A DNA stretch of 33,568 nucleotides from a plasmid. Below the pieces are notes generated by a model. It worked only from the letters and a program-made list of their open reading frames with translations, was not told where the DNA came from and made no database searches. The stretch lies in NCBI RefSeq assembly GCF_988242995.1, contig NZ_OZ547045.1. One strand, given 5' to 3'. The position numbers and the translations under genes were made by a program. Of the stretch, positions 14,057 through 25,160 are shown in pieces (within the stretch, counting starts at the first letter, position 1; each line of letters starts with the position of its first letter).

Positions 14057-14400
14057 TTATCCACGTACATCCGACCCCCCTGATTACCGTACATCCGACC
14101 CCCCTTGTCGTACATCCGACCCCCTAGCTTTGTACATCCGACCCCCTAAGTCGTACATCCGACCCCCTTTTTTTGTACATCCGACCCCCTATTTTTTGTA
14201 CATTAGACCCCCTGAAAATACGTACATCAGACCCCCCCTAAACCTATAAGGTGATCTCCTGTAGGTTTCCTGTAGTTTGACCGATAGCACTTAACCTATA
14301 AATTTTGCTTCTAAGAGATCAGCCTGTATGAATGCCCTCCGATAATTTATTCAATAAAATCAGTGGATAAAATAATAAATCGAATAATTTAAGTTCAGTG
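14057..14400. other. oriV region: DnaA boxes flanking the iterons plus an A+T-rich segment
   Basis: TTATCCACG at 14057..14065 abuts iteron 1. GTGGATAA (the box on the minus strand) is at 14363..14370. The stretch 14330-14400 is strongly A+T-rich. Confidence 0.7.
14065..14238 (+). repeat. oriV iterons: 8 direct repeats of GTACATCCGACCCCC
   Basis: Copies start at 14065, 14089, 14110, 14132, 14153, 14175, 14198 (GTACATTAGACCCCC) and 14222 (GTACATCAGACCCCC). Spacing is 21-24 bp. Confidence 0.9.
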
Positions 14401-14713: not shown

Positions 14714-15133
14714 ATGAAAAAAACGCTATTGAGCCTAACCCTGTTAGCTACCACCTGTCAGGCAAGCGCCCAGCCTTGCACAGTGATCTTTGAAAATGGT
14801 CAGTTAATTACGTTACCGGCGGCTGTCACTCAGGCAGACCAGGTGAAAGGGCTATCTGGTGATAATCACAACACCGGCTTAATCCTGGCATGGAACACAG
14901 CAGAACCCCGCGCAGTCTGGATGAAAAACACACCGAATCCACTTACAGCGGCGTTTATCAGTGCAAATGGCGTAATCCAGAGCGTTCAGGATATGCAGCC
15001 CAACAGCGACACCGCGCATTCATCCCTCCACCCGACCATAGCAATCATTGAGATGAGGACGGAAAAATTTAAACAGTTCAAATTATCAAAAGGCGACAAA
15101 GTCATTTCCAGCCAATGTTTCCCCCTCAAATAA
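14714..15133 (+). CDS. DUF192-family secreted protein
   Basis: 139 aa with a signal peptide. The pattern GLSG...LILAW...AVWMKNTPNPLTAAFISANGVI...IIEM...GDKV fits DUF192 (COG1430), as I recall it. Confidence 0.65.
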   Translation: MKKTLLSLTLLATTCQASAQPCTVIFENGQLITLPAAVTQADQVKGLSGDNHNTGLILAWNTAEPRAVWMKNTPNPLTAAFISANGVIQSVQDMQPNSDTAHSSLHPTIAIIEMRTEKFKQFKLSKGDKVISSQCFPLK

Positions 15134-15579
15134 CGCCTCAGAACCCCGTAGAGCCATTCAATCAGAAAAAAGCGGCCTCATGTACAGCTCAACCAAAATA
15201 GCCGCTTACAGAGCCATACAGCGCGTATATAACCAATATCGCCCGGCGGCACCGGCGCTAACGTGCCTGTAGGGGCGCTGGCCGCGCTGCGGCCATCCCC
15301 CCAACACCCGGATAAATCGCGCCCGGCCCGTCGCTACGCGCCAGCCCGCCCGCTCAACCGGGCCGTTGTGACGGGCCACTGTTCCGGCAGCGGCATCGTG
15401 TGACAGCCCGCTAAAACCGGCTTTGCAGGGAGGGGGTGGGCGCGTCTCCCGGTTTGATCCCGCAAGGCCCGGCAATTTGACCACGTCGCCCAGGTTGAGA
15501 TCGGCGCAGTTGCCTTTTATTTGTCGGCATCGGCGCTAAATTTAAGTAAATTTATCGTACTATATAATGATACTTAAAG

Positions 15580-15608
15580 TTGACTTTTGAGGGGGAAAAG
15601 CCTATACT
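15580..15608 (+). promoter_or_regulatory. Promoter P1 (TTGACT-N17-TATACT)
   Basis: -35 at 15580..15585, -10 at 15603..15608, exact 17-bp spacer. AATGATAC lies just upstream. Confidence 0.75.
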
Positions 15609-15615
15609 TTATTTA

Positions 15616-15690
15616 CGGTTAGCAATGGTGCTGACCGACCCGGAACCAGTGGCGGCAACCGCTCCGGGGAACTTGCGAAGGGGGCAAGAA
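15616..15690 (+). promoter_or_regulatory. Structured leader L1 (hairpin 1 + hairpin 2 + TGCGAAGG SD block)
   Basis: CGGTTAGCA-ATGG-TGCTGACCG, then CCCGG-AACC-AGTGG-CGGCAA-CCGCT-CCGGG, then TGCGAAGG 10 nt before the ATG. Confidence 0.7.
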
Positions 15691-15960
15691 ATGAATTTAA
15701 CCACACTGCTTAAAAAGCATTTTGATATTGAGGAATGTACAGATGTAGACCCTATGGTAAACCGGGAGGTTTACGCCATATGGGTTTATGAAAAAGGCGA
15801 GGATTGCGAGCCGCTTTTAATCCTCAAAGATGCTCAGGATGTTATGGGCGTAGACGGCTGGCTTGTCGGGAATATCTATTCCACGTTGCAACATGGCTTA
15901 TTGCTTCAGCATGAAGAACTGAAAATGATGATCCGAAACGGCGAGATTAAGAGCCGTTAA
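15691..15960 (+). CDS. Hypothetical leading-region protein (89 aa)
   Basis: The ATG at 15691 follows the conserved leader/SD. The ORF-track start at 15580 lies in the promoter. Confidence 0.65.
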   Translation: MNLTTLLKKHFDIEECTDVDPMVNREVYAIWVYEKGEDCEPLLILKDAQDVMGVDGWLVGNIYSTLQHGLLLQHEELKMMIRNGEIKSR

Positions 15961-15969
15961 ATGTTTATG

Positions 15970-16048
15970 CGGTCGGCAATGGTGCCGACCGGCCCGGAAT
16001 CAGCGGCGGCAACCGCTCCGGGCAAACTGCGAAGGTACAGAGGCTAAT
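15970..16048 (+). promoter_or_regulatory. Structured leader L2 (intercistronic, no promoter)
   Basis: CGGTCGGCA-ATGG-TGCCGACCG carries compensatory changes relative to L1. It has a full hairpin 2 and CTGCGAAGG. Confidence 0.7.
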
Positions 16049-16264
16049 ATGTCAGTAAAAGATTTCTCCCCTACCCTGGAAATTAAATTCCATCGTCGCC
16101 GCTGGCGTATCATGGCTGGATGCTCAAGCCTGGCGTCGTTCCGCTCCGAGCAGGACGCGATTGATGCGCTCAATAAGCGGCGCTCATTCTATGAATATTG
16201 GGCCGGTTCTGCCGGTGTCCAGGCAGAGAACACCGAGCCGGTGATAGTCCACATAACCTATTGA
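16049..16264 (+). CDS. Hypothetical leading-region protein (71 aa)
   Basis: The ORF starts after leader L2 and is followed by a terminator. Confidence 0.6.
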   Translation: MSVKDFSPTLEIKFHRRRWRIMAGCSSLASFRSEQDAIDALNKRRSFYEYWAGSAGVQAENTEPVIVHITY

Positions 16265-16274
16265 ACACTTTTAA

Positions 16275-16297
16275 AGCCCGTAAACCGGGCTTTTTTA
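16275..16297 (+). terminator. Rho-independent terminator
   Basis: GCCCG-TAAAC-CGGGC followed by TTTTTT. Confidence 0.75.
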
Positions 16298-16341
16298 GTC
16301 TTTAAAGTACAATTAAAAGTAAAAAATAATGATACCAATAG

Positions 16342-16370
16342 TTGACTTATGGAGGGTGAACACCTATACT
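16342..16370 (+). promoter_or_regulatory. Promoter P2 (TTGACT-N17-TATACT)
   Basis: -35 at 16342..16347, -10 at 16365..16370. AATGATACC lies upstream. It has no GC-rich CUP segment. Confidence 0.75.
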
Positions 16371-16378
16371 TTATTCAT

Positions 16379-16453
16379 CGGTTAGCAATAGTGCTGACCG
16401 GCCCGGAACCAGCGGCGGCAACCGCTCCGGGCAAACTGCGAAGGAGTAATATT
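16379..16453 (+). promoter_or_regulatory. Structured leader L3
   Basis: Hairpin 1 has loop ATAG. Hairpin 2 is full length. CTGCGAAGGAG precedes the ATG at 16454. Confidence 0.7.
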
Positions 16454-17281
16454 ATGTTATCTAGCCGTTTTCGTTCTGCAAATATCCTGCGTTCTGACCG
16501 CCCTCTTAACGATGATCAAATCATGCGTTATGCCCCGTCTATCTTTGCAACTGAAGCGCATGAAAGCCGCTCTGACCGGTACGCTTACATTGCGACCAGC
16601 GAAGTGTTAAACGGTTTGCGTGATAACGGTTTTCATCCGTTTATGGTTTGTCAGACTCGCGTTCGCAACCTGGATAAGCGCGAACACACCAAGCACATGA
16701 TCCGTCTGCGTCATGCCGGGCAAATTAACGGTACAGAAGCGAAGGAAATCATTTTGCTTAACTCGCACGATGGCAGCAGCAGCTATCAAATGCTGGCCGG
16801 TGTATTCCGTTTCGTTTGCCATAACGGTTTAGTGTGTGGTGATACGGTAGCGGATATTCGTATTCCCCATAAAGGCGATGTTACCGAGCGCGTTATTGAA
16901 GGGGCATTTGAGGTGCTGGATCAGTTTGATATGGTTGAAAGCCATATGGAATCTATGAAGTCTGTAACGCTGGATGCGCTGGAGAAGCGTATTTTTGCAG
17001 AAGCGGCGTTAGCACTGCGTTATGACGAACAAAAAGACGGCCCCGCACCAATCGCCGCTAGCCAGCTCCTTGAGGCGCGCCGTTTTGAAGATCGCAAAGA
17101 TGATTTATGGACAACGTTTAACCGCGTACAGGAAAACATTATCCGTGGTGGTTTGAGCGCCAGAACCAAACAGGGGAAATCAACCCGTACCCGCGCCGTA
17201 ACTGGTATGGATAAAGATACGTCTTTAAACCGCGCTTTATGGATTCTCAGCGAGCGCATGAATGAAATTAAAGCCGCTTAA
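16454..17281 (+). CDS. DUF932-family protein (common in plasmid/ICE leading regions)
   Basis: 275 aa from MLSSRFRS... . [28 protein letters not shown]...[27 protein letters not shown] fits DUF932, as I recall it. The ORF-track start at 16349 lies in the promoter/leader. Confidence 0.75.
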
Positions 17282-17289
17282 TGGCAAAT

Positions 17290-17314
17290 GCCCCGCTTAC
17301 CGGCGGGGCTTTTA
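17290..17314 (+). terminator. Hairpin + T-run between the DUF932 gene and ssb (probable attenuator)
   Basis: GCCCCGC-TTACCG-GCGGGGC followed by TTTTAT. ssb has its own SD downstream (AAGGTG). Confidence 0.5.
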
Positions 17315-17337
17315 TCAACCCGAAAAAGGTGATTATC

Positions 17338-17838
17338 ATGGCTTCAAGAGGTGTTAATAAAGTAATTCTGGTCGGCAATTTAGGCCAAGATCCTGAAGTG
17401 CGTTATATGCCGAACGGCGGCGCGGTTGCCAACATTACGCTAGCCACGTCAGAAAGCTGGCGCGACAAGCAGACCGGCGAAATGAAAGAACAAACGGAAT
17501 GGCATCGCGTTGTATTATTCGGCAAGCTGGCAGAGGTCGCCGGGGAATATCTGCGCAAGGGTTCGCAGGTGTACATTGAGGGCCAGCTCAGAACACGTAA
17601 ATGGACAGATCAAGCTGGCGTGGACAAGTACACTACAGAGGTTGTCGTTAACGTTGGCGGCACTATGCAGATGTTAGGCGGTCGCCAGCAAAACGGCTCT
17701 CAGCCAGGTAATAATGAATGGGGCCAGTCGCAGCAGCCGCAAGGCGGCCAGCAGTTCAGCGGCCAGCCACAGAACACCGGCGCAGCGCCAGCGGCAGGAA
17801 ATGAGCCGCCTCCTTTTGATGATGATATTCCGTTTTAG
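17338..17838 (+). CDS. ssb: Single-stranded DNA-binding protein
   Basis: [44 protein letters not shown]..., with a Gly/Gln-rich linker and an acidic tip DDDIPF. Confidence 0.95.
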
Positions 17839-17856
17839 CCCTGATAAATATTTAAA

Positions 17857-17872
17857 TGTAAATTTATTTACA
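17857..17872. promoter_or_regulatory. A+T palindrome upstream of the KorA-like gene, containing TAAATTTA
   Basis: TGTAAAT-TT-ATTTACA. The TAAATTTA core also occurs twice in each CUP copy (for example 18806..18813 and 18816..18823). Confidence 0.4.
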
Positions 17873-17961
17873 GATTTATCTAAATAAATAACCGTTTTAG
17901 AGTTAACCTTCTGTAATTATTGATTAAATCGGCCCGTTTTCGGGCCGTAATGAGGTAAAAA

Positions 17962-18264
17962 ATGGCAGTAGAACGCATTTCCCCTGAAGAATGGCAGCGC
18001 ATCGCACCGGCATTGCGTACATGCAGCCAGGTAACGATCGATATGGCTTATGCCGTACTGGTTGATGGCCGTAAACAAGTAGATGTGGCGTCAGAGTTTG
18101 ACCGGTCAAAGCAAACGGTCAATGCGGCTATCAGGCGCGTTACTGCAATTTTTAACGAGGTTATCCCGGAAGATGAGCAGTTAGAATTTGTACAAGTCTG
18201 GTTGCCGCCAGAGCTGGCGAAGCAGGTAAAAGAAATGGCTAAACCGTATCAGAATAAAAAATAA
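17962..18264 (+). CDS. KorA/TrfB-family HTH repressor (ArdK-like candidate regulator of the leading-region promoters)
   Basis: 100 aa. The protein is colinear with RK2 KorA as I remember it (...TIDMAYAVLVDGRKQVDVASEFDRSKQTVNAAIRRV...). Confidence 0.7.
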   Translation: MAVERISPEEWQRIAPALRTCSQVTIDMAYAVLVDGRKQVDVASEFDRSKQTVNAAIRRVTAIFNEVIPEDEQLEFVQVWLPPELAKQVKEMAKPYQNKK

Positions 18265-18848
18265 CAGGAGTTATCGACATGTGTGAGTACGGATTTAAAA
18301 ACTAACTGAAAAAAATCACTTATGGCGTTCCCTGCGGGGCGGGCTTTCGTGCTGCGCATCGAGCCAGGCAAGCTGTCTCGCCCCTTCGGGCTTCAATCCC
18401 TAACGCCTCCGGGCTGTCGCCCTCCGCGCTCCGCTTGACCCCCACGCCCTGCGCCGGACTTGCCCCGCCTACGGCGGCCCCGCCCCTCCGGGGTGGCTTC
18501 GCCATCCTCTGCCAGCGGCACCGGCGCTAACGTGCCTGTAGGGGCGCTGGCCGCGCTGCGGCCATCCCCCCAACACCCGGATAAATCGCGCCCGGCCCGT
18601 CGCTACGCGCCAGCCCGCCCGCTCAACCGGGCCGTTGTGACGGGCCACTGTTCCGGCAGCGGCATCGTGTGACAGCCCGCTAAAACCGGCTTTGCAGGGA
18701 GGGGGTGGGCGCGTCTCCCGGTTTGATCCCGCAAGGCCCGGCAATTTGACCACGTCGCCCAGGTTGAGATCGGCGCAGTTGCCTTTTATTTGTCGGCATC
18801 GGCGCTAAATTTAAGTAAATTTATCGTACTATATAATGATACTTAAAG

Positions 18849-18877
18849 TTGACTTTTGAGGGGGAAAAGCCTATACT
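18849..18877 (+). promoter_or_regulatory. Promoter P3 (TTGACT-N17-TATACT)
   Basis: -35 at 18849..18854, -10 at 18872..18877. Confidence 0.75.
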
Positions 18878-18885
18878 TTATTTAT

Positions 18886-18959
18886 CGGTTAGCAATGGTG
18901 CTGACCGACCCGGAACCAGCGGCGGCAACCGCTCCGGGCAATCTGCGAAGGTGGGAATT
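18886..18959 (+). promoter_or_regulatory. Structured leader L4
   Basis: Full hairpin 1 and hairpin 2, with CTGCGAAGG before the ATG at 18960. Confidence 0.7.
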
Positions 18960-19268
18960 ATGAATACTTTCAACGCTGACAAAATCCGCTCTGAACTGGA
19001 TGTTTTAGCGAAAGAAACAATGCCCGGTTGTGGTCTTATTTACGAGCTGTATCAGCGTCGTTTGAGCGCTGCCATTGATAACTTTGTCGCTACCCTGCCA
19101 GCAGAACAACACGCCCAGGCATTTGAACTGGCCCGCCAGGAGTTTGATTACCTTTCTGCGGAAGAAATTGCTGATGAAATCCGCCGCGACTCAGAAAACG
19201 GCTATTGCAGCCACGGCATTGATCGCAATTGCTGCCCTTTGGGTTGCGGGGATTTGGACGATTATTAA
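18960..19268 (+). CDS. Hypothetical acidic leading-region protein (102 aa) with a Cys-rich C-terminus
   Basis: The ATG follows leader L4. The C-terminus is CSHGIDRNCCPLGCGDLDDY. Confidence 0.65.
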   Translation: MNTFNADKIRSELDVLAKETMPGCGLIYELYQRRLSAAIDNFVATLPAEQHAQAFELARQEFDYLSAEEIADEIRRDSENGYCSHGIDRNCCPLGCGDLDDY

Positions 19269-19303
19269 TTGACAGGGGGCTATTGCCCCCTACAACCAAA
19301 ACG

Positions 19304-19351
19304 GGCGGCGGCAACCGCCACTATTTAAACAATCTGCGAAGGATATAGATT
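19304..19351 (+). promoter_or_regulatory. Partial leader L5 (hairpin-2 core + CTGCGAAGG)
   Basis: GGCGG-CGGCAA-CCGCC, where the outer pair has changed from A-T to G-C. CTGCGAAGG is at 19334..19342. Confidence 0.6.
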
Positions 19352-19774
19352 ATGAGCGCATACGTGGTATCTGATAAATCCATTTCTACTATCGTTAAAA
19401 CTCTGGTTATTGCCGGTACACTTCAACCTGTCGAAGCTGTTTCTTTTGGTCAGATGATGCTTAATCTGAATACTCATTCCGTTAATATTCGCTATCAAGA
19501 AAACAGCCCGGCGCACCCTTTTGAATACAGCGACCCGGAATTAAATATCCATGACCCCAAAACTCAAATGCAGGTGATTGTCTGTATTGATGAATATGAA
19601 TATCAGTCCTGCGAGTTTGCCGAATACTATGAAACGATGGTGCATACAGTCCTAAAAGCCATCAAATCAGCGCTTATGCAGGCTTACACGGATATGTTGC
19701 CTAACCCATCGCAATGGAAAGAAAAAAAGTCCTATGACTTGCCAGGCTACTCAGAAGCTGAATGGGGTTTATGA
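19352..19774 (+). CDS. Hypothetical leading-region protein (140 aa)
   Basis: The ORF follows leader L5 and is followed by two hairpins. Confidence 0.65.
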   Translation: MSAYVVSDKSISTIVKTLVIAGTLQPVEAVSFGQMMLNLNTHSVNIRYQENSPAHPFEYSDPELNIHDPKTQMQVIVCIDEYEYQSCEFAEYYETMVHTVLKAIKSALMQAYTDMLPNPSQWKEKKSYDLPGYSEAEWGL

Positions 19775-19808
19775 TTGAACGGGGGGGAAATCCCCCCCTT
19801 CTACCTGA

Positions 19809-19829
19809 AGGGGCTACGCCCCTTTTTTT
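19809..19829 (+). terminator. Rho-independent terminator, preceded by a G7/C7 hairpin at 19781..19798
   Basis: AGGGGC-TAC-GCCCCT followed by T7. Confidence 0.75.
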
Positions 19830-19848
19830 ATGCCGGTTTTATGCCGCT

Positions 19849-20003
19849 TACTTATGGCGTTCCCTGCGGGCCGGGCTTTCGTGCTGCGCATCGAGCCAGG
19901 CAAGCTGTCTCGCCCCTTCGGGCTTCAATCCCTAACGCCTCCGGGCTTTCGCCCTCCGCGCTCCGCTTGGCCTCCGGGCTTTCGCCCTCCGCGCTTTGCT
20001 TGG
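19849..20003 (+). repeat. Partial CUP module M1 with an internal 33-bp tandem duplication
   Basis: Matches the first ~120 bp of copies B and C. The unit CCTCCGGGCTTTCGCCCTCCGCGCTCCGCTTGG (19938..19970) is repeated at 19971..20003 with 2 substitutions. Confidence 0.85.
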
Positions 20004-20031
20004 CCTTTCCAGCCGGTGCCAGCTCCGGGCC

Positions 20032-20284
20032 GCGAGGATAACCGGCGGGAGGCGAACTGTCCTCCACAGCTCCCCGTTCCGTTGGATGGTCTGCCGTTCC
20101 TCCATTACCGGTATTCCACACTAGCGCGGTGTGGCGTCAATAGTTCGCTTCGCCGCTTCGCGCTATTGACCCCACCCCTTGCGCCAGTGTTACACACCGG
20201 TTGTCGGAAACGACAAACCCTCCAACTACCCTACAGGTGCTTTATGGCCGAAATTCTCCAACTCCTCCCGCCGGTTATCCTCGC
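20032..20284 (+). repeat. Perfect 21-bp long-range inverted repeat bracketing a structured 211-nt segment
   Basis: GCGAGGATAACCGGCGGGAGG (20032..20052) pairs with CCTCCCGCCGGTTATCCTCGC (20264..20284). Internal hairpins are CCACAC/GTGTGG, GTCAATAG/CTATTGAC and TTGTCG-GAAA-CGACAA. Confidence 0.9.
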
Positions 20285-20348
20285 TATTGCAGCCCTCATC
20301 ACAGCCATCACCGGGCTAATAAAAGTCCTGAAAAGCAAGAAGAAGTAA
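20244..20348 (+). CDS. 34-aa hydrophobic peptide with a Lys-rich tail (type I toxin-like)
   Basis: MAEILQLLPPVILAIAALITAITGLIKVLKSKKK, with an AGGTG SD 5 nt upstream. Codons 7-14 form the right arm of the 21-bp inverted repeat. A strong terminator follows. Confidence 0.55.
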   Translation: MAEILQLLPPVILAIAALITAITGLIKVLKSKKK

Positions 20349-20351
20349 CGG

Positions 20352-20380
20352 AAAGGGGCGGCAAGCCGCCCCTTTCCCCT
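20352..20380 (+). terminator. Rho-independent terminator
   Basis: AAAGGGGCGGC-AA-GCCGCCCCTTT, an 11-bp stem. Confidence 0.8.
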
Positions 20381-21004
20381 GCTCCCCTTGCTTACCCTGC
20401 TGTACGATCCGTGGATTTCACAGTTGAATAATTTTTTGTGGTCGCCGTAATTGGCCCCGCTGCGCCAGTCGCTTACTTAGGGCGTTCCCTGCGGGCCGGG
20501 CTTTCGTGCTGCGCATCGAGCCAGGCAAGCTGTCTCGCCCCTTCGGGCTTCAATCCCTAACGCCTCCGGGCTTCGCCCTCCGCGCTCCGCTTGGCCCCCA
20601 CGCCCTGCGCCGGACTTGCCCCGCCTACGGCGGCCCCGCCCCTCCGGGGTGGCTTCGCCATCCTCTGCCAGCGGCACCGGCGCTAACGTGCCTGTAGGGG
20701 CGCTGGCCGCGCTGCGGCCATCCCCCCAACACCCGGATAAATCGCGCCCGGCCCGTCGCTACGCGCCAGCCCGCCCGCTCAACCGGGCCGTTGTGACGGG
20801 CCACTGTTCCGGCAGCGGCATCGTGTGACAGCCCGCTAAAACCGGCTTTGCAGGGAGGGGGGGGGCGCGTCTCCCGGTTTGATCCCGCAAGGCCCGGCAA
20901 TTTGACCACGTCGCCCAGGTTGAGATCGGCGCAATTGCCTTTTATTTGTCGGCATCGGCGCTAAATTTAAGTAAATTTACCGTACTATATAATGATACTT
21001 AAAG

Positions 21005-21033
21005 TTGACTTTTTAGGGGGGAAAATCTATACT
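21005..21033 (+). promoter_or_regulatory. Promoter P4 (TTGACT-N17-TATACT)
   Basis: -35 at 21005..21010, -10 at 21028..21033. Confidence 0.75.
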
Positions 21034-21040
21034 TTATTTA

Positions 21041-21113
21041 CGGTTAGCAATGGTGCTGACCGACCCGGAACCAGCGGCGGCAACCGCTCCGGGTAATCTG
21101 CGAAGGAAAATGT
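21041..21113 (+). promoter_or_regulatory. Structured leader L6
   Basis: Full hairpins 1 and 2, with CTGCGAAGG before the ATG at 21114. Confidence 0.7.
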
Positions 21114-21395
21114 ATGAATACGACCCTTTTTGTTTTAATCCTTGCCGTAGCTGGCGCGTTGTATCTGCCCTGGCGACTTGTGCGCGATGGTTACAAAGAG
21201 CTTGTACAGATGTGTCTGTTTTGCTCCTGTATCGTCACGCTGGCCGCTGTATATGCCGTGTTGGTCAATCTCAATAACCCACACCCGTTTATGCCTATGT
21301 TTATCGCGGTAACGGCGTTCGGTGCGGTATTTGTGGCTGATTGCGCTTTATCTCTCTGGCTCTATCAGCGTAAAGCTAAGACGGCTAACCACTAA
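21114..21395 (+). CDS. Small polytopic membrane protein (93 aa)
   Basis: The ATG follows leader L6. There are three hydrophobic segments. A terminator follows. Confidence 0.65.
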   Translation: MNTTLFVLILAVAGALYLPWRLVRDGYKELVQMCLFCSCIVTLAAVYAVLVNLNNPHPFMPMFIAVTAFGAVFVADCALSLWLYQRKAKTANH

Positions 21396-21406
21396 CCACT
21401 AACTAA

Positions 21407-21429
21407 ACCGCCCTGCGGGGCGGTTTTTA
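21407..21429 (+). terminator. Rho-independent terminator
   Basis: ACCGCCC-TGC-GGGGCGGT followed by TTTTT. Confidence 0.75.
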
Positions 21430-21449
21430 ACCGTGATACGGGGGCAATT

Positions 21450-21692
21450 ATGGGAAACATCATTTTGATGGCCGAGAAGCTAAAAGGCGCGGTTTCCGAT
21501 GAATATGAAGTGTATGAATTTGAGGGCATGGATGATTTGATCCGGTTTCGTAAGAAATACCCGGAACAAATGAAGTATGAATATTCTTACTGTCTATCTG
21601 GCGGTACGAAAGATTTTCACCATATTGCGCTCGTCGAAGCTGACCATTTTAAGCAGTTCAAAAAGCAGGTTGACCAGTACCAGGCTCGATAA
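21450..21692 (+). CDS. Hypothetical leading-region protein (80 aa)
   Basis: ORF with a G-rich SD (acgggggcaattATG). A terminator follows. Confidence 0.55.
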   Translation: MGNIILMAEKLKGAVSDEYEVYEFEGMDDLIRFRKKYPEQMKYEYSYCLSGGTKDFHHIALVEADHFKQFKKQVDQYQAR

Positions 21693-21699
21693 CCTTGAA

Positions 21700-21727
21700 C
21701 GGCGCGGCAATACCGCGCTGTTTTTTA
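21700..21727 (+). terminator. Rho-independent terminator
   Basis: CGGCGCGG-CAATA-CCGCGCTG followed by TTTTTT. Confidence 0.7.
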
Positions 21728-21746
21728 CCCTCTATTTATGTCTTAT

Positions 21747-21771
21747 TTTAGTATCATATTATGATACTAAA
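21747..21771. promoter_or_regulatory. Perfect 25-bp palindromic operator abutting promoter P5
   Basis: TTTAGTATCATA-T-TATGATACTAAA. The right half (ATGATACT.AA) is the element conserved upstream of P1-P4. Confidence 0.65.
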
Positions 21772-21773
21772 TA

Positions 21774-21802
21774 TTGACTTATCAGGCCGCAAAAAGTATA
21801 CT
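21774..21802 (+). promoter_or_regulatory. Promoter P5 (TTGACT-N17-TATACT)
   Basis: -35 at 21774..21779, -10 at 21797..21802. Confidence 0.75.
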
Positions 21803-21810
21803 TTATTTAT

Positions 21811-21851
21811 CGGTTAGCAATGGTGCTGACCGTATGCGAAGGAGTAAAGTT
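21811..21851 (+). promoter_or_regulatory. Truncated leader L7 (hairpin 1 + TATGCGAAGGAG; hairpin 2 absent)
   Basis: CGGTTAGCA-ATGG-TGCTGACCG is joined directly to TATGCGAAGGAG. Confidence 0.6.
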
Positions 21852-22007
21852 ATGAAAAAATTCATTGGCAACCGTAACGGCAAGGCGGTTTTTCAGGAAG
21901 GTGATCGTGAGTTGGTAGCCGCTTACCAGATGAAATCCTCCCCGATTCCGGTAACGCCACGCAAGCTGAAAGCTGAAATGGATGCTATCGCCGCTACAGC
22001 CCGATAA
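21852..22007 (+). CDS. Hypothetical small protein (51 aa)
   Basis: The ATG at 21852 follows leader L7 and a strong SD (GAAGGAG). Confidence 0.55.
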   Translation: MKKFIGNRNGKAVFQEGDRELVAAYQMKSSPIPVTPRKLKAEMDAIAATAR

Positions 22008-22043
22008 TCATTCACCCGCGCCGTTGGCGCGGGTAACTCTCAC

Positions 22044-22082
22044 AGCGGCGGCAACCGCTTTTTTATGCGAAGGAGCAACGCG
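22044..22082 (+). promoter_or_regulatory. Partial leader L8 (hairpin-2 core + T-run + TATGCGAAGGAG)
   Basis: AGCGG-CGGCAA-CCGCT-TTTTT, then ATGCGAAGGAG before the ATG at 22083. Confidence 0.55.
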
Positions 22083-22265
22083 ATGTATCTATCTTTGATG
22101 GAACAAGCACGACAGGCAGAGGAATTGCGCGACTGGAAAACCGCCGCGCAACTCTACACCCAGGCGATGGCCGTTAGTCCAAAAGCCAGAACTATGCGCC
22201 AGCGCCGCGAAAGGCTGTATCTGCAACAGCGCATTGAGTTTTGCGAGCGTAATTCGAGAATGTAA
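22083..22265 (+). CDS. Hypothetical helical small protein (60 aa)
   Basis: The ATG at 22083 follows leader L8. A bidirectional terminator follows. Confidence 0.55.
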   Translation: MYLSLMEQARQAEELRDWKTAAQLYTQAMAVSPKARTMRQRRERLYLQQRIEFCERNSRM

Positions 22266-22271
22266 AAAACT

Positions 22272-22304
22272 AAAAAAAACCGCCTCAATCCGGCGGTTTT
22301 TTTT
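22272..22304. terminator. Bidirectional rho-independent terminator between convergent genes
   Basis: A8-ACCGCC-loop-GGCGGT-T8. Confidence 0.8.
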
Positions 22305-22306
22305 GG

Positions 22307-23074
22307 TTAGGCTGCCTGGTATTCTGCCTTTCCGCAGTGTTCGCCGCCACAGTACAGAATTAGGCCCGGTTTCCCCCAAACGTTGGTATGGCATTTCGGG
22401 CAGGTGTATTTTGTCCGGTTTGATTTATTAACCGGCGTATCCGGTGGCGGGTTTACCAGGGAAAGGGCTTGCGTGATCTCATCATCCAGCTCGCCATTGT
22501 CGCTGTAACCCTCATCATCATCGCCATCATCAACATAACCTTTGCCGTCTGCGCCGGTTGGCGTTGGTGGCGTTGGTTTGTGCGGTGGGAACCTGTCCAG
22601 CCAGCTCAGTTTAAACTCCGTGGTTAGCAACTCCTTGCAGGCTGTATCAAACGGGCCGCCGTCCTCGATGTAGTGGCTCATCGACTCACCGACGCGCTTT
22701 CCTCCGGGCTGGCCGCTGTCGGATGGTATCAGGCCGATGCGCTCCATCATCGCCGCCCACTCTTTATTGTGGTATCCACGGCGTCCCGGTTGGCCGGTGT
22801 GTTGTTGGTACTGGTGAACCATTTCATGCACAAGCGTGGAAAGTGTGTCGCGTATCGTGCGGATCGAGAAATAGACCGGATTCATGGCGATTTCATCAAC
22901 GATTTGGCCGGTTGTGCGGCCAACAAAACGGGCATTTGAGAAATAGCCAAACGTTCGTTTTTCGCGCTGAAGGGTGATTAGGCAGGGCGGCAGCGTACTA
23001 TCAAACAGCCGCTGATTGAAAAATTCGTATGCGCGTTGAAGCTCGTCGTAAGTTTCCTGGGTAGGGATGATCAT
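22307..23074 (-). CDS. SprT-like zinc metalloprotease with a C-terminal zinc ribbon
   Basis: HEMVH motif in an SprT-like context (LSTLVHEMVHQYQQ...YHNKEWAAMMERIGL). The C-terminus is CPKCHTNVWG...YCGGEHC. The likely start is MIIPTQ at 23074 (GAGG SD). The ORF-track start at 23113 lies inside an operator. Confidence 0.75.
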   Translation of the reverse strand: MIIPTQETYDELQRAYEFFNQRLFDSTLPPCLITLQREKRTFGYFSNARFVGRTTGQIVDEIAMNPVYFSIRTIRDTLSTLVHEMVHQYQQHTGQPGRRGYHNKEWAAMMERIGLIPSDSGQPGGKRVGESMSHYIEDGGPFDTACKELLTTEFKLSWLDRFPPHKPTPPTPTGADGKGYVDDGDDDEGYSDNGELDDEITQALSLVNPPPDTPVNKSNRTKYTCPKCHTNVWGKPGLILYCGGEHCGKAEYQAA

Positions 23075-23096
23075 AGCGGCCTCATAAATTAATTTC

Positions 23097-23140
23097 TGGA
23101 TTGTGCAATCCATTTTATTGCTTATGGATTGTGCAATCCA
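23097..23140. promoter_or_regulatory. Two copies of the 16-bp motif TGGATTGTGCAATCCA flanking a -10-like TAAAAT (minus strand) of the SprT-like gene
   Basis: Copies at 23097..23112 and 23125..23140. The minus-strand TAAAAT corresponds to 23112..23117. Confidence 0.6.
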
Positions 23141-23151
23141 CTTTTATTTTG

Positions 23152-23233
23152 GGCGTTCCCTGCGGGCGGGCTTTCGTGCTGCGCATCGAGCCAGGCAAGC
23201 TGTCTCGACCCTTCGGGCGTCAATCCCTAACGC
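23152..23233 (+). repeat. Isolated copy of CUP module M1
   Basis: GGCGTTCCCTGCGGGCGGGCTTTCGTGCTGCGCATCGAGCCAGGCAAGCTGTCTCGACCCTTCGGGCGTCAATCCCTAACGC matches the M1 segment of copies B and C, apart from one missing base and about three substitutions. Confidence 0.85.
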
Positions 23234-23242
23234 AATCCAGGC

Positions 23243-23270
23243 AAAAAAAAGCGGCCCGCATGGGGCCGCT
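23243..23270 (-). terminator. Rho-independent terminator of the stbABC operon
   Basis: The minus strand reads GCGGCCCC-ATGC-GGGCCGC followed by T8. Confidence 0.8.
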
Positions 23271-23287
23271 TCCGGTCAGGCTTTTTA

Positions 23288-23656
23288 TCAGTGCAGCAGG
23301 AACGTTATAGCCGCCGCGCCGAGCGCTCCACCAACAAAGGAACAGACAACCGTGATAATCAGTATCTGCCTGATAAGCGCTTTCGAAAACCCTGTATGCG
23401 CCCCGGCCAGACGTTCAAAAAATTGTTCGCTAACCTTCTGCTCCTTCTTCAGAGTGTTGACCAGCTCGCGCTGGCTTGCGATCACTTCTGTTTTCGCAGT
23501 CTCCGATGATTTTGCTATCGCGTCGGAGGCTTTATCCAGCCGTTCTATTGCTTCGGTAACGCTTACACTTACACTTTCCAGTTTTGAGGTGATTTCTTTA
23601 GCATCGCCTAAAAACCAGTCCATCAGGACATCTAATTTATCAGGTTGCTTTTCCAT
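23288..23656 (-). CDS. stbC: StbC-position protein with a C-terminal TM helix
   Basis: 122 aa. It is the third gene of the stb-like operon. The assignment is by synteny only. Confidence 0.55.
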   Translation of the reverse strand: MEKQPDKLDVLMDWFLGDAKEITSKLESVSVSVTEAIERLDKASDAIAKSSETAKTEVIASQRELVNTLKKEQKVSEQFFERLAGAHTGFSKALIRQILIITVVCSFVGGALGAAAITFLLH

Positions 23657-23657
23657 A

Positions 23658-24368
23658 TTATTCAGCCGTTAATATTTCAAAGGTGCGATCAAGATTACGT
23701 TTAACCGGTAATGCTAATTTCATCCAGCGATAACGACGCGCAGCCGCCGCACGTTCATCGGCATCGGTGCAAGTTTTAGCTTTTGCTTTAAAGGTTTCTG
23801 GATCTTCTGCCAGCAGTTCTTCAAACGAAATTTTGTGATACGCGAGGTATTCATAAATTTCACTTTCAAAAACGGCGGCATCTTTATGAATAGAGGCTTT
23901 TTTAGAATCTTTCGCCCATTCATATACCGAAGCAATATCCTCCTGCGGAGTCGATTTAATGCGGTTAGGCAGAAGAACAATTTTAGATTTAGGAACGCCA
24001 GCGGCACTTAACGCGAGGGCGGTCTTAATACTTTCCTGCCATGCTTTATCATCCGGGGTGACAGGAATCAGATATTTATCAAATTCGTCAATTGCACCCT
24101 CATATTTTGTCATGGTAGAAAGAAACCGCTCAACGTTCGACGCGCCAATATCCACGATGGCATTATCTTCAAATACGATTTCTTCAACGAGTTGACCAAA
24201 GTTATCGCCGGTTAAGCTCATCACTTCATCAACACCCAAATCCGCAGCCGACATATTGATTGTCTCGATGGCAAAGAATTTAGCGCCAGCCATGCGAGGA
24301 TACAGCAGGTATGACGAAATAATGGTTTTGCCGACGCTGCCACTGTAATTCATTACTGCAATTTTCAT
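23658..24368 (-). CDS. stbB: ParA/MinD-like ATPase (StbB-like)
   Basis: 236 aa with a deviant Walker A at the N-terminus (MKIAVMNYSGSVGKT). AAGGAG SD. Confidence 0.8.
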   Translation of the reverse strand: MKIAVMNYSGSVGKTIISSYLLYPRMAGAKFFAIETINMSAADLGVDEVMSLTGDNFGQLVEEIVFEDNAIVDIGASNVERFLSTMTKYEGAIDEFDKYLIPVTPDDKAWQESIKTALALSAAGVPKSKIVLLPNRIKSTPQEDIASVYEWAKDSKKASIHKDAAVFESEIYEYLAYHKISFEELLAEDPETFKAKAKTCTDADERAAAARRYRWMKLALPVKRNLDRTFEILTAE

Positions 24369-24380
24369 CTGTAAGCTCCT

Positions 24381-24815
24381 TTAGAAACCTTTCTTATTAC
24401 CTACGCTACCTTTGAATGAGGTTGCGACTTTCTTTGCCTCATCACCAATTTTTTTAAAATCGGTATCGGATAAAAATTCTTTGTTCCCGCCCATATCCTC
24501 AACTAATTTTTCTGGTTCTGGATTGTGCAATCCAGTTTCCACCGGTTCCGCTTTCTCCTGCTCTTTTGGATTGTGCAATCCAGTATTTACCGTACTTTCT
24601 GGATTGTGCAATCCACCTTTTTTGCGTTTCAATCTTGCCCGGTACAAGGCCATATCTAACGCTTTCACAGTCACAGAAAAGCTGTATTCACTATCAAGAA
24701 GTTGAGCAATTTCTTGCCTACTAATACCCTTGTCTAACAAACCTTCAATCTCATCAAGACGCGCTCTTACAGCCGCAGCGAGATTGCGAGGTTCCAGTAA
24801 AAGGTCTTTTTTCAT
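24381..24815 (-). CDS. stbA: StbA-like DNA-binding protein (N-terminal HTH, repetitive linker)
   Basis: 144 aa. It is the first gene next to oriT. It has an HTH-like segment (GISRQEIAQLL) and three GLHNP repeats. The assignment is by synteny with R388/pKM101. Confidence 0.65.
   Translation of the reverse strand: MKKDLLLEPRNLAAAVRARLDEIEGLLDKGISRQEIAQLLDSEYSFSVTVKALDMALYRARLKRKKGGLHNPESTVNTGLHNPKEQEKAEPVETGLHNPEPEKLVEDMGGNKEFLSDTDFKKIGDEAKKVATSFKGSVGNKKGF
24519..24615. repeat. Three further copies of TGGATTGTGCAATCCA inside the stbA coding sequence
   Basis: Copies at 24519..24534, 24567..24582 and 24600..24615. All are in the same orientation as the two at 23097..23140. Each encodes GLHNP. 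Confidence 0.9.
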
Positions 24816-24876
24816 ACCACCCCCGCTTGTCGAATTTCACTATATGGCAGCCTGTTTTAGCTGTCAATCGGTTTTT

Positions 24877-25012
24877 GTAGTATTTCAGTAGTATTCCTGT
24901 AGTAATTCAGTAGTAACGCTTGTCGATACCGCTCATTTTTGTAGTATATCTGTAGTAATGGCTATTTCAGTTTGTAGTATTTTAGTAGTAATTCAGTAGT
25001 ATCGGTGTAGAA
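24877..25012. repeat. Phased GTAGTA repeat array (putative StbA-binding, centromere-like site)
   Basis: GTAGTA at 24877, 24888, 24899, 24910, 24941, 24952, 24974, 24985 and 24996, plus GTAGAA at 25007. Within each cluster the copies fall on an 11-bp lattice. Confidence 0.7.
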
Positions 25013-25121: not shown

Positions 25122-25160
25122 GGCTATACACCATACGCAATTACGATTTTCATCGTAAAT
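25122..25160 (-). other. oriT core: inverted repeat + predicted nic site (minus strand)
   Basis: The minus strand reads ATTTACGAT-GAAA-ATCGTAAT-TGCGTATGGTGT/ATAGCC. This resembles the R388 site GCGCACC-GAAA-GGTGCGT-ATTGTCT/ATAGCC, as I recall it. The predicted nick is between 25128 and 25127. Confidence 0.6.

Follow-up and report, generated by a model that had tools for sequence, protein, structure and literature searches.

Twelve small genes, all on one strand, lie between the replicon and the transfer origin (oriT) of a conjugative plasmid, and the question they raise is what kind of island they form and how they come to be expressed when the plasmid enters a new cell. The island spans positions 15200-22306 of a 33,568-nt stretch of plasmid DNA (contig NZ_OZ547045.1, assembly GCF_988242995.1), referred to here as the window, which is most of a small conjugative plasmid of the IncN family, as judged by matching the island against plasmid records. 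IncN-family plasmids are major carriers of carbapenemase and extended-spectrum beta-lactamase genes, and their success hinges on the first minutes after entry. An original prediction made from the sequence had described nine of the twelve genes as lacking a recognisable function and had left out the large repeats that organize the island. Once these repeats are considered, the island is probably a regulon controlled by conserved upstream (CUP) elements of an IncN-family plasmid, in other words a leading-region module for establishment under the control of a repressor. Systems of this type have been known since the 1990s, and the island is a variant of them and not a new kind. The CUP-controlled regulon was described for pKM101/R46 by Delver & Belogurov (1997), as related in later papers (PMC5371602, PMC5027574, PMC6289460), and each CUP of that system consists of a promoter and an ArdK-binding site (PMC5371602, PMC5027574, PMC6289460, PMC6294495).

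The promoter-proximal part of the CUP, about 100-150 bp long, occurs five times in the island, starting at 15540, 16302, 18809, 20965, and 21734, and the conserved sequence extends to the ATG. At three of the five promoters it follows a GC-rich part and at the other two this part is absent; the GC-rich parts are direct repeats of about 400 bp, 99-100% identical in all three copies (Table 1). Every promoter-proximal copy bears the same sigma-70 promoter, TTGACT-17-TATACT. In a promoter scan of 8.2 kb no other site scored as well as these five, each of which agrees at 10 of 12 positions. Plus-strand terminators were located at 16273, 19807, 21704, and 22272. Five operons can be delineated, comprising the ccgD-like and 71-amino acid (aa) genes, DUF932-ssb-ardK, ccgAII with the 140-aa gene, the ccgC-like and 80-aa genes, and the 51-aa and 60-aa genes, with the 34-aa gene as a separate unit outside them. 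The placement of all twelve genes on one strand amounts to five or six transcription units and not to twelve independent events, but the same polarity towards oriT recurs in R46, pGLE121P3, pIE321, and other relatives. The 300-bp GC-rich middle of the long CUPs (about 65% GC; 18444-18800, also 15243-15542 and 20668-20967) is covered by only 92 plasmid records, and no convincing fold, open reading frame (ORF), or family match was found in it. Within this plasmid its copies are 99-100% identical, which suggests gene conversion between them.

The repressor gene encoded in the second operon had been noticed as KorA-like. The fold is as described (PF16509), but its identity had been missed: by its sequence the protein is ArdK, the putative repressor of the regulon itself, and CP074311, the closest record, assigns the gene to the ArdK family. 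At all five promoters the motif ATGATAC(T/C) lies 4-6 nt upstream of TTGACTT and resembles CCGTACTTGTATTGACTT of the R46 CUPs. From comparison with the R46 CUPs and with published ArdK sites (PMC9723621), it is a putative ArdK operator upstream of the -35 boxes; operators of the ArdK family overlap or flank the -35 box (PMC9723621). At promoter 5 the putative site falls within a perfect 12-bp palindrome. The ArdK of R388 acts on five establishment promoters, one of them its own, and for this negative feedback a post-conjugation transcription overshoot has been measured (PMC3937220).

Taken together, these features suggest a course of events after transfer, in which both ArdK binding and the timing of expression are deduced from sequence. 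In an established host, ArdK would occupy a site that coincides with each -35 box or immediately precedes it, and the regulon would be nearly silent. The transferred strand (T-strand), predicted to be the minus strand, would enter a recipient that contains no ArdK. Once the complementary strand has been made, the five promoters would fire together until newly made ArdK shuts them off, and the outcome would be zygotic induction with a transcriptional overshoot. With the genes directed towards oriT, transcription would also be co-directional with complementary-strand synthesis.

Between promoter and gene, the 5' untranslated regions (UTRs) share a cassette of one or two GC hairpins and a Shine-Dalgarno sequence. 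It stands immediately before eight of the twelve start codons, including those of three internal cistrons, which are the promoterless second genes of three operons. The first hairpin, hp1, has the sequence CGGTTAGCA-ATGG-TGCTGACCG and begins at about the predicted transcription start, so that it would form the mRNA 5' end (at promoter 3 the -10 box ends at 18877 and hp1 starts at 18885). The second, hp2, reads CCCGGA-acc-AGCGG-CGGCAA-CCGCT-CCGGG with the core GGCGGCAACC, and is followed by a spacer of 4-10 nt, TGCGAAGG(AG), a further spacer of 5-10 nt, and the ATG. The promoterless copy at 15970 contains compensatory changes in hp1 (TTAG/CTGA to TCGG/CCGA). On the gene strand of the island, GCGGCGGCAACCGC occurs 7 times against 0.01 expected, and the island contains 8 copies of TGCGAAGG, where 1.3 would be expected in the entire window. 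The fold of hp1 and hp2 together has a z-score of -3.3 as RNA and -4.35 as DNA. Across 40 distinct copies, the hp2 stems are 87% paired, compared to 34-49% when the partner is slid, with 21 double-change cells relative to 5.8 in shuffles, a count reached by none of 500 shuffles.

The hp2 cassette is not restricted to this plasmid, and the copies in IncW and Pseudomonas plasmids show compensatory changes in the stem. A covariance model built from it (R1) gave 44 significant matches, all on the gene strand of leading-region islands, with no match in R46 and none elsewhere in the window. In Pseudomonas MOBF plasmids, hp2 with its Shine-Dalgarno sequence is found 6-9 times per plasmid, always on the gene strand and just upstream of start codons, and IncW pIE321 has seven copies of hp2, followed by GCAGGAGTC. 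A contig scan of one genome per species for CCGG-N5-9-GGCGGCAACCGCTCCGG gave true multi-copy matches only in Pseudomonas, Stutzerimonas, and Oligella, most of the matches being chance ones in GC-rich actinomycetes. The cassette principle belongs to the known CUP concept, because the R46 CUPs have an analogous hairpin pair of different sequence with TAAGGAG, also as a promoterless copy before ccgC. The hp2 hairpin itself had no match in Rfam and no description in the searchable literature; Rfam searches at gathering thresholds (whole window) and at E <= 5 (15100-23300) returned only terminator look-alikes. The fixed short distance to the start codon favours action of the hp2 cassette as RNA. 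It may stabilise the mRNA, may insulate a strong ribosome-binding site and thereby secure good expression in many hosts for whatever gene follows, and may offer a homology or recombination joint for the swapping of genes. Separately, ardK contains GGTTGCCGCC at 18212-18221, the exact complement of the hp2 core. This sequence is also present in ardK of one further comparison plasmid (L009) and of an IncW plasmid (L010), and it is absent from ardK of L005 and L011, both of which bear hp2. RNA-RNA pairing between hp2 and ardK was considered and set aside as probably a coincidence, as GGTTGCCGCC represents the codons of a conserved W-L-P-P motif and is missing in two hp2 plasmids.

A second repeated element, here called D4, is a GC-rich multi-stem sequence of about 85-120 nt. 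There are four copies in the window, all of the same polarity (Table 1). At 19937-20005, the 3' end of copy b, is a 33-nt tandem repeat (GCCTCCGGGCTTTCGCCCTCCGCGCT...) of two units. The otherwise 98% identical pCFSAN004085 has at least six units (L001 11062-11262), and copy number thus varies. A 491-nt query starting with D4 matched 1,717 plasmid records, of which 1,527 are conjugative, and its first 120 nt alone match very diverse plasmids. The related plasmids fetched for comparison (R46, a Pandoraea plasmid, four Pseudomonas plasmids, and an IncW plasmid) have 2-4 copies each, all with the polarity of the leading-region genes. In addition to those whose coordinates are given in Table 1, D4 is present in L005, L006, L009, L010, and L011. 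Its closing stem occurs in compensatory variants (GGCGTT/AACGCC, GGCATTA/TAATGCC, GGCGTC/GACGCC, GGCGTG/CACGCC, GGAGCGA/TCGCTCC), and the longest complementary run averages 6.4 nt within a copy compared to 4.0 nt between copies.

The twelve genes themselves are as the original prediction had placed and sized them on the plus strand, by the ORF list, selection, and Pfam. In order to determine whether the small ORFs are genuine, the ratio of non-synonymous to synonymous change (pN/pS) was calculated against orthologues in L007 and L008, plasmids that are about 90% identical in DNA. The ten ungapped ORFs are real because their pN/pS is 0.00-0.23, which rules out that they are spurious, and DUF932 and ssb are real because of their Pfam matches. 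DUF932, ssb, and the 93-aa gene could be aligned only with gaps and fall outside the pN/pS scoring; the 93-aa protein is 90% identical to its L007/L008 counterparts. For the 34-aa ORF, three synonymous and no non-synonymous changes were counted, with 100% protein identity in both plasmids. The tested ORFs are real genes under purifying selection. CP074311 also lists hypothetical proteins for GC-rich ORFs within the CUP repeats; these ORFs are probably artefacts of GC-rich repeat DNA and were set aside. The cargo consists of SSB, the DUF932 protein, Ccg (CUP-controlled) proteins, and six lineage-restricted small proteins. The statement that nine of the genes lack recognisable function was too strong, given that three are homologues of the named R46 proteins CcgD, CcgAII, and CcgC and one is weakly ANR-like.

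The nine proteins had no above-threshold match to curated families in Pfam, NCBIfam, PADLOC, or PHROGs, and the four that were tested had no solved relatives by sequence in the Protein Data Bank (PDB). CcgAII is acidic (isoelectric point (pI) 4.35), and its ELYQRRLS motif is invariant; the conserved tail, CxHG..D..CCPxGCGD, is rich in Cys and His and suggests metal binding. Its model has four helices at a mean predicted local distance difference test score (pLDDT) of 87 and no fold match in the PDB. The family of the 140-aa protein, which has neither a name nor a Pfam model, counts at least 3,345 members in phages and plasmids, and the protein matches uncharacterised phage proteins. Its model is a helical fold (pLDDT 96.4) without a solved structural analogue. 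The 60-aa protein aligned over its full length with the ANR (AraC negative regulator) model NF033650 (E 6.6e-5, 22.7 bits, below the cut-off of 32 bits) and also with phrog_2227 (E 2e-6). By composition, the 93-aa CcgC-like and the 34-aa products are membrane peptides. The latter (MAEILQLLPPVILAIAALITAITGLIKVLKSKKK, region 20000-20380) is preceded by about 250 nt of GC-rich leader and followed by a hairpin of its own, an arrangement that recalls type I toxins or small modulators of membrane function; a tblastn search against plasmids returned no match for it, probably because of the low-complexity filter.

Several points weigh against the reading of the island as an ArdK-gated CUP regulon with the element roles proposed above. 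The 34-aa gene, lacking both a CUP promoter and a cassette, does not fit the scheme, and the 300-bp GC-rich CUP part is left without a role. The site upstream of the -35 box is a perfect palindrome at only one of the five promoters, the operator is guessed from sequence comparison, and ArdK is only 38% identical to the studied proteins. The hp2 copies were picked by an invariant 10-mer, which makes the invariance of the loop partly circular, and hp2 shows 11 G.U wobbles and 11 A.C mismatches, equal counts by which the hairpin could act on either strand, as T-strand DNA or as RNA. None of the orphan proteins matches a known anti-defence family in Pfam, NCBIfam, PADLOC, PHROGs, or the PDB. With regard to expression, it is improbable that transcription of the genes begins on the T-strand itself as it enters, from hairpin promoters of the Frpo/ssi type and ahead of complementary-strand synthesis. 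All twelve genes do have the predicted T-strand as template, and in F and IncI plasmids this is the rule for leading genes that are driven by single-stranded DNA (ssDNA) promoters (PMC11541004, PMC12672017, PMC9849209). In the long CUPs, 300-400 nt of GC-rich sequence without an assigned function also precede the promoters, and ssDNA-promoter classes without sequence similarity to Frpo are still being discovered (PMC12672017). However, T-strand folds and an inverted-repeat search revealed no T-strand hairpin that rebuilds the -35 and -10 boxes at the CUPs, and on these grounds a Frpo-like promoter there was rejected. The whole-CUP T-strand fold reached only z = -1.9, and the T-strand near the promoter has only a short AT-rich inverted repeat, not kept in promoters 2 and 5, that puts the boxes in the loop and not in the duplex. 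The GC-rich part is missing altogether from two of the five promoters, the -35/-10 pair comes close to the consensus of a double-stranded promoter, and the sequence upstream of it resembles the pKM101 ArdK operator. For pKM101, too, the CUP system is regarded as zygotically induced, with no part for ssDNA promoters (PMC6294495). Zygotic induction in a recipient free of repressor, once the second strand has been made, is better supported than ssDNA transcription and is the most likely mode of expression. The orientation rule invoked in the original prediction holds for polarity but is not supported in its ssDNA-transcription sense. It is rather doubtful that hp2 and especially D4 act as folded T-strand ssDNA and not as RNA, either as ssi priming sites or as roadblocks that time conversion. 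All four D4 copies and all those in eight other plasmids have the same polarity relative to oriT, and copies in the stbC-SprT or stbC-orfD spacer keep it even where the local genes run the opposite way. The D4 stems covary, with an RNAalifold consensus that is 92% paired compared to 28-50% when slid and 38 double-change cells compared to 16 in shuffles, though this consensus was scored on the sequences from which it was derived. When folded with DNA parameters, 13 of 14 copies are more stable as the minus strand and the remaining one is a tie, and in the F plasmid a stem-loop has been shown to act as a roadblock to conversion (bioRxiv 10.64898/2026.01.09.698686). Against this, the D4 fold z-scores after shuffling are weak on both strands (-1.0 and -0.5, a small difference), the minus-strand edge is explained in part by higher G content, and the fixed short distance of hp2 to the Shine-Dalgarno sequence and start codon is expected of an RNA element and not of a priming site. 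For D4, the polarity fixed to oriT suggests a DNA-level T-strand signal for priming or timing of complementary-strand synthesis, and we regard the element as a candidate for such a signal or for a non-coding RNA.

Whether the island protects the incoming plasmid is a separate matter. In tblastn searches of the window at E < 1e-3, R46 ArdA, ArdB, ArdR, CcgAI, and MucAB had no match, and OrfD was also without a counterpart. Because the cargo contains no ArdA, ArdB, or MucAB homologue and no match to known anti-defence proteins, one or more of the orphans may fill that role. This is plausible from their location, and an anti-defence or establishment role is a fair hypothesis because pKM101/R46 hold ardA and ardB in the same kind of block. 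It is also quite possible that the orphans have nothing to do with defence and serve host physiology, fertility inhibition or exclusion, membrane functions, or regulation, or are nearly neutral cargo carried along by the cassettes. No orphan matches an anti-defence or defence-related model, two are membrane peptides, and the 60-aa protein, if truly ANR-like, would be a regulator. Furthermore, gene content varies between close relatives through extra genes or losses, and p271A persists as a plasmid despite the loss of 5.2 kb from its CUP regulon (PMC3490853). On the other hand, purifying selection acts on all tested genes, the same slot in R46 holds proven anti-restriction genes of which the window has no ArdA or ArdB homologue, and relatives of the 140-aa protein lie beside relaxases in plasmids and within phage early-gene arrays, which are typical anti-defence neighbourhoods. 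Returning to the CUP regulon as a whole, we tentatively consider it possible that hp2 and D4 are two undescribed classes of leading-region element of MOBF plasmids (IncN-like, IncW, Pseudomonas, and Pandoraea) within the establishment machinery, with hp2 a portable expression cassette recognised by a factor of the host or the plasmid and D4 a T-strand priming or timing signal, and that at least one of the six lineage-restricted proteins is a new anti-defence protein, the 140-aa protein being the best candidate.

The backbone around the island is that of an IncN-like plasmid. The island matches 797 plasmid records, the best being pCFSAN004085 from Salmonella (IncN, MOBF, MPF_T, 33.8 kb, 98.4% identity), with about 150 more at 90-95% identity, many of them 34-35 kb IncN plasmids of Enterobacterales. 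The annotations of the window, pCFSAN004085, and R46 have in common the order relaxase, coupling protein (T4CP), small accessory gene, oriT, stbA-stbB-stbC, SprT-like gene, small-gene block pointing to oriT, and replicon. StbC, StbB, and StbA are 38%, 58%, and 35% identical to their R46 counterparts. From these comparisons the plasmid is a distinct lineage within the IncN-like family, because its relaxase is only 52% identical to R46 TraI and its StbB 58% identical. The plasmid has a GC content of about 47%. At the predicted oriT, an inverted repeat is followed after 8 nt by the nick, which we take to be the layout of the R388 TrwC site (GTCT/ATAGCC), and a nick between 25128 and 25127 on the minus strand is a reasonable prediction. 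The relaxase would then stay on the 5' end at ATAGCC and the minus strand would enter the recipient with stbABC first, and the plus-strand genes would therefore be templated by the T-strand. The leading-region position of the island beside stbABC and oriT, the T-strand as template given this nick, and the minus-strand location of stbABC and the SprT-like gene (gene map and PF10263) were all correctly anticipated.

Other features of the flanks may be noted. The SprT-like protein has a C-terminal Cys-rich, zinc-ribbon-like tail, and its gene adjoins stbABC in L001, L007, L008, and Pseudomonas pGLE121P3; the R46 homologue sits elsewhere, between mucAB and ardK. SprT/Spartan-type enzymes cleave DNA-protein crosslinks, and the incoming T-strand has a covalently bound relaxase, so a connection between the two is conceivable. 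A 33-nt repeat around the palindrome TGGATTGTGCAATCCA occurs in five copies within 23084-23144 and 24506-24619. Two of them lie immediately upstream of the SprT-like gene, and the other three, inside stbA, are translated as a recurring GLHNP peptide. At 24874-25012, in the stretch separating stbA from the oriT core, is an array of 11-bp repeats (TTTGTAGTA / TCAGTAGTA), probably StbA binding sites and the counterpart of the R388 stbDRs. At the other end, within features at 14089-14196 and 14714-15133, are iteron-like 21-22-bp repeats (GTACATCCGACCCCC) downstream of the rep gene and a DUF192 gene with a probable signal peptide. The DUF192 gene is on the island strand immediately upstream of the island and has no CUP before it.

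Table 1 Coordinates of the features of the leading-region island and its flanks. L numbers designate comparison plasmids; R1 is the hp2 covariance model.
Feature	Position	Strand	Basis or remark
CUP long repeat copy 1, GC-rich distal part, without D4	15148-15542	+	15243-15542 is 100% identical to 18512-18811 and 99% to 20668-20967
CUP long repeat copy 3, GC-rich part	18417-18811	+	repeat comparison
CUP long repeat copy 4, GC-rich part	20573-20967	+	repeat comparison
CUP promoter 1	15580-15608	+	putative ArdK operator ATGATACTT-N-TTGACTT just upstream, overlapping -35 box
CUP promoter 2 (short CUP, without GC-rich part)	16342-16370	+	promoter and repeat scan
CUP promoter 3	18849-18877	+	promoter scan
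CUP promoter 4	21005-21033	+	promoter scan
CUP promoter 5	21774-21802	+	perfect palindrome TTTAGTATCATA-T-TATGATACTAAA at 21747-21771
Cassette hp1, hp2, TGCGAAGG	15615-15690	+	R1 match at 15633, 51.5 bits
Promoterless cassette hp1, hp2, Shine-Dalgarno between two cistrons	15970-16048	+	R1 match at 15987, 56.4 bits
Cassette after promoter 2	16378-16453	+	R1 model
Cassette after promoter 3	18885-18959	+	hp1 18885-18908, hp2 18909-18938, TGCGAAGG 18944-18951
Partial cassette before 140-aa gene: hp2 inner stem and CTGCGAAGG	19289-19351	+	R1 match at 19289, 29.9 bits
Cassette after promoter 4	21040-21113	+	R1 model
Cassette after promoter 5: hp1 only and TGCGAAGG	21810-21851	+	sequence comparison
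hp2 inner hairpin, T-run, TGCGAAGG before 60-aa gene	22029-22074 (cassette to 22082)	+	R1 match, 31.7 bits; possibly a Shine-Dalgarno cassette joined to a partial terminator or attenuator
D4 copy a, distal end of CUP copy 3	18320-18439	+	repeat and structure comparison
D4 copy b, then 33-nt tandem repeats	19852-19971	+	repeat comparison
D4 copy c, distal end of CUP copy 4	20477-20595	+	repeat comparison
D4 copy d, core domain only, between minus-strand stbC and SprT	23149-23233	+	same position occupied in L007, L009, R46
D4 in L002	22049-22155, 23760-23876, 26266-26376		
D4 in L004	688-801, 4001-4126		
89-aa gene, CcgD homologue, acidic, pI 4.8	15691-15960	+	38% identity to R46 CcgD; pN/pS 0.07-0.12
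71-aa gene	16049-16264	+	no R46 homologue, no family match; pN/pS 0.08; terminator 16273-16293
DUF932 gene, 275 aa	16454-17281	+	PF06067, E 2e-55; 62-64% identity to Pseudomonas and Pandoraea plasmid copies
ssb, 166 aa	17338-17838	+	PF00436, E 1e-40
ardK, KorA/TrfB-family repressor, putative regulator of five CUP promoters	17962-18264	+	PF16509, E 3e-12; 38% identity to R46 ArdK
ccgAII, 102 aa	18960-19268	+	63% identity to R46 CcgAII
140-aa gene, large unnamed mobile-element family	19352-19774	+	terminator 19807-19825
34-aa hydrophobic peptide gene	20244-20348	+	own downstream GC hairpin 20350-20377; without CUP promoter and UTR cassette
93-aa membrane protein, CcgC homologue	21114-21395	+	33-35% identity to R46 CcgC; grand average of hydropathy (GRAVY) 0.91
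80-aa gene	21450-21692	+	no family match; pN/pS 0.21-0.23; terminator 21704-21721
51-aa basic protein	21852-22007	+	no family match; pN/pS 0.15-0.17
60-aa basic helical protein, weakly ANR-like	22083-22265	+	bidirectional terminator 22272-22304
SprT-like zinc metalloprotease gene, bounds island	22307-23113	-	PF10263, E 4e-11; 65-67% identity to R46 SprT-like protein
stbC, stbB, stbA	23288-24815	-	identity to R46 StbC, StbB, StbA
oriT core	25122-25160	-	inverted repeat TTACGAT-GAAA-ATCGTAA, then TTGCGTATGGTGT/ATAGCC; predicted nick between 25128 and 25127

What is new here is the hp2 cassette, D4, and the membership of the 140-aa protein in a large family with a confidently predicted fold and no solved counterpart; both the cassette and D4 appear to be undescribed. 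The reading of the island as an ArdK-gated CUP regulon provides an experimental handle, in which a single repressor faces five identical promoters. With no ArdA or ArdB homologue and no known anti-defence match in the cargo, the conserved unknown proteins make up a short and defined list of candidates. The hairpin and ribosome-binding site cassette may explain both the reliable expression of leading genes across hosts and the exchange of cargo between plasmids, and D4 is a candidate DNA-level second-strand signal for plasmids without Frpo-type promoters.

Among known systems, the CUP regulon of IncN1 pKM101/R46 has the same architecture. It lies between stbABC/oriT and the replicon with its genes directed towards oriT, comprises several operons that each start from a strong promoter within a copy of the repeated conserved upstream element, and encodes the ArdK repressor within the block. 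Homologues of ccgAII, ccgC, ccgD, and the SprT-like gene are shared, as are promoterless copies of the UTR part before internal cistrons. The window differs in being without ardA, ardB, ardR, ccgAI, mucAB, and orfD. Its ardK belongs to a DUF932-ssb-ardK operon, as in IncW and Pseudomonas plasmids, whereas R46 ardK is next to repA. The CUP sequence also differs from that of R46, with only the D4 part aligning (about 75%), as do the sequence of the UTR hairpins and the relaxase. The island is still filed as a variant of the CUP regulon despite the lack of ardA and ardB because these genes are cargo and not architecture, and IncN2 regulons differ in cargo too (PMC5371602).

IncW R388 and pIE321 also have a KorA/TrfB-family ArdK that represses several leading or establishment promoters, including that of its own ssb-ardK operon (PMC3937220, PMC9723621), and in pIE321 hp2 with the GGCGGCAACC core precedes the start codons of ardC, ssb, and other genes, accompanied by D4-like copies. 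In contrast to the window, these plasmids have no long CUP repeats, the Shine-Dalgarno context is GCAGGAGTC and not TGCGAAGG, the cargo includes the anti-restriction gene ardC, and the ArdK operators of R388 are direct repeats of another sequence. The Frpo/ssi promoters of F and IncI1 plasmids have the leading-region location, the T-strand template, and the presumed purpose of early transient expression in common with the island, whereas the window has ordinary double-stranded promoters with a putative repressor site and no T-strand hairpin that rebuilds the promoter boxes. In Rfam, the window elements showed no similarity to known RNA or ssDNA motif families. Finally, Pseudomonas MOBF/MPF_T plasmids such as pGLE121P3, pCCBH28525_KPC, and pUR_RT652 have islands in which many small genes are arrayed on one strand. 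These islands contain DUF932, ssb, and a TrfB-related repressor, hp2 with GCGAAGGAG before 6-9 start codons per plasmid, 2-4 copies of D4, and relatives of CcgAII and the 140-aa protein, and in pGLE121P3 the order relaxase, oriT, stbABC, SprT, and then the island is also the same. They differ in cargo, for example a DNA cytosine methyltransferase, DUF4942, and a RelE/ParE pair, have no identical CUP repeats of 400 bp, and either have a different hp1 or none.

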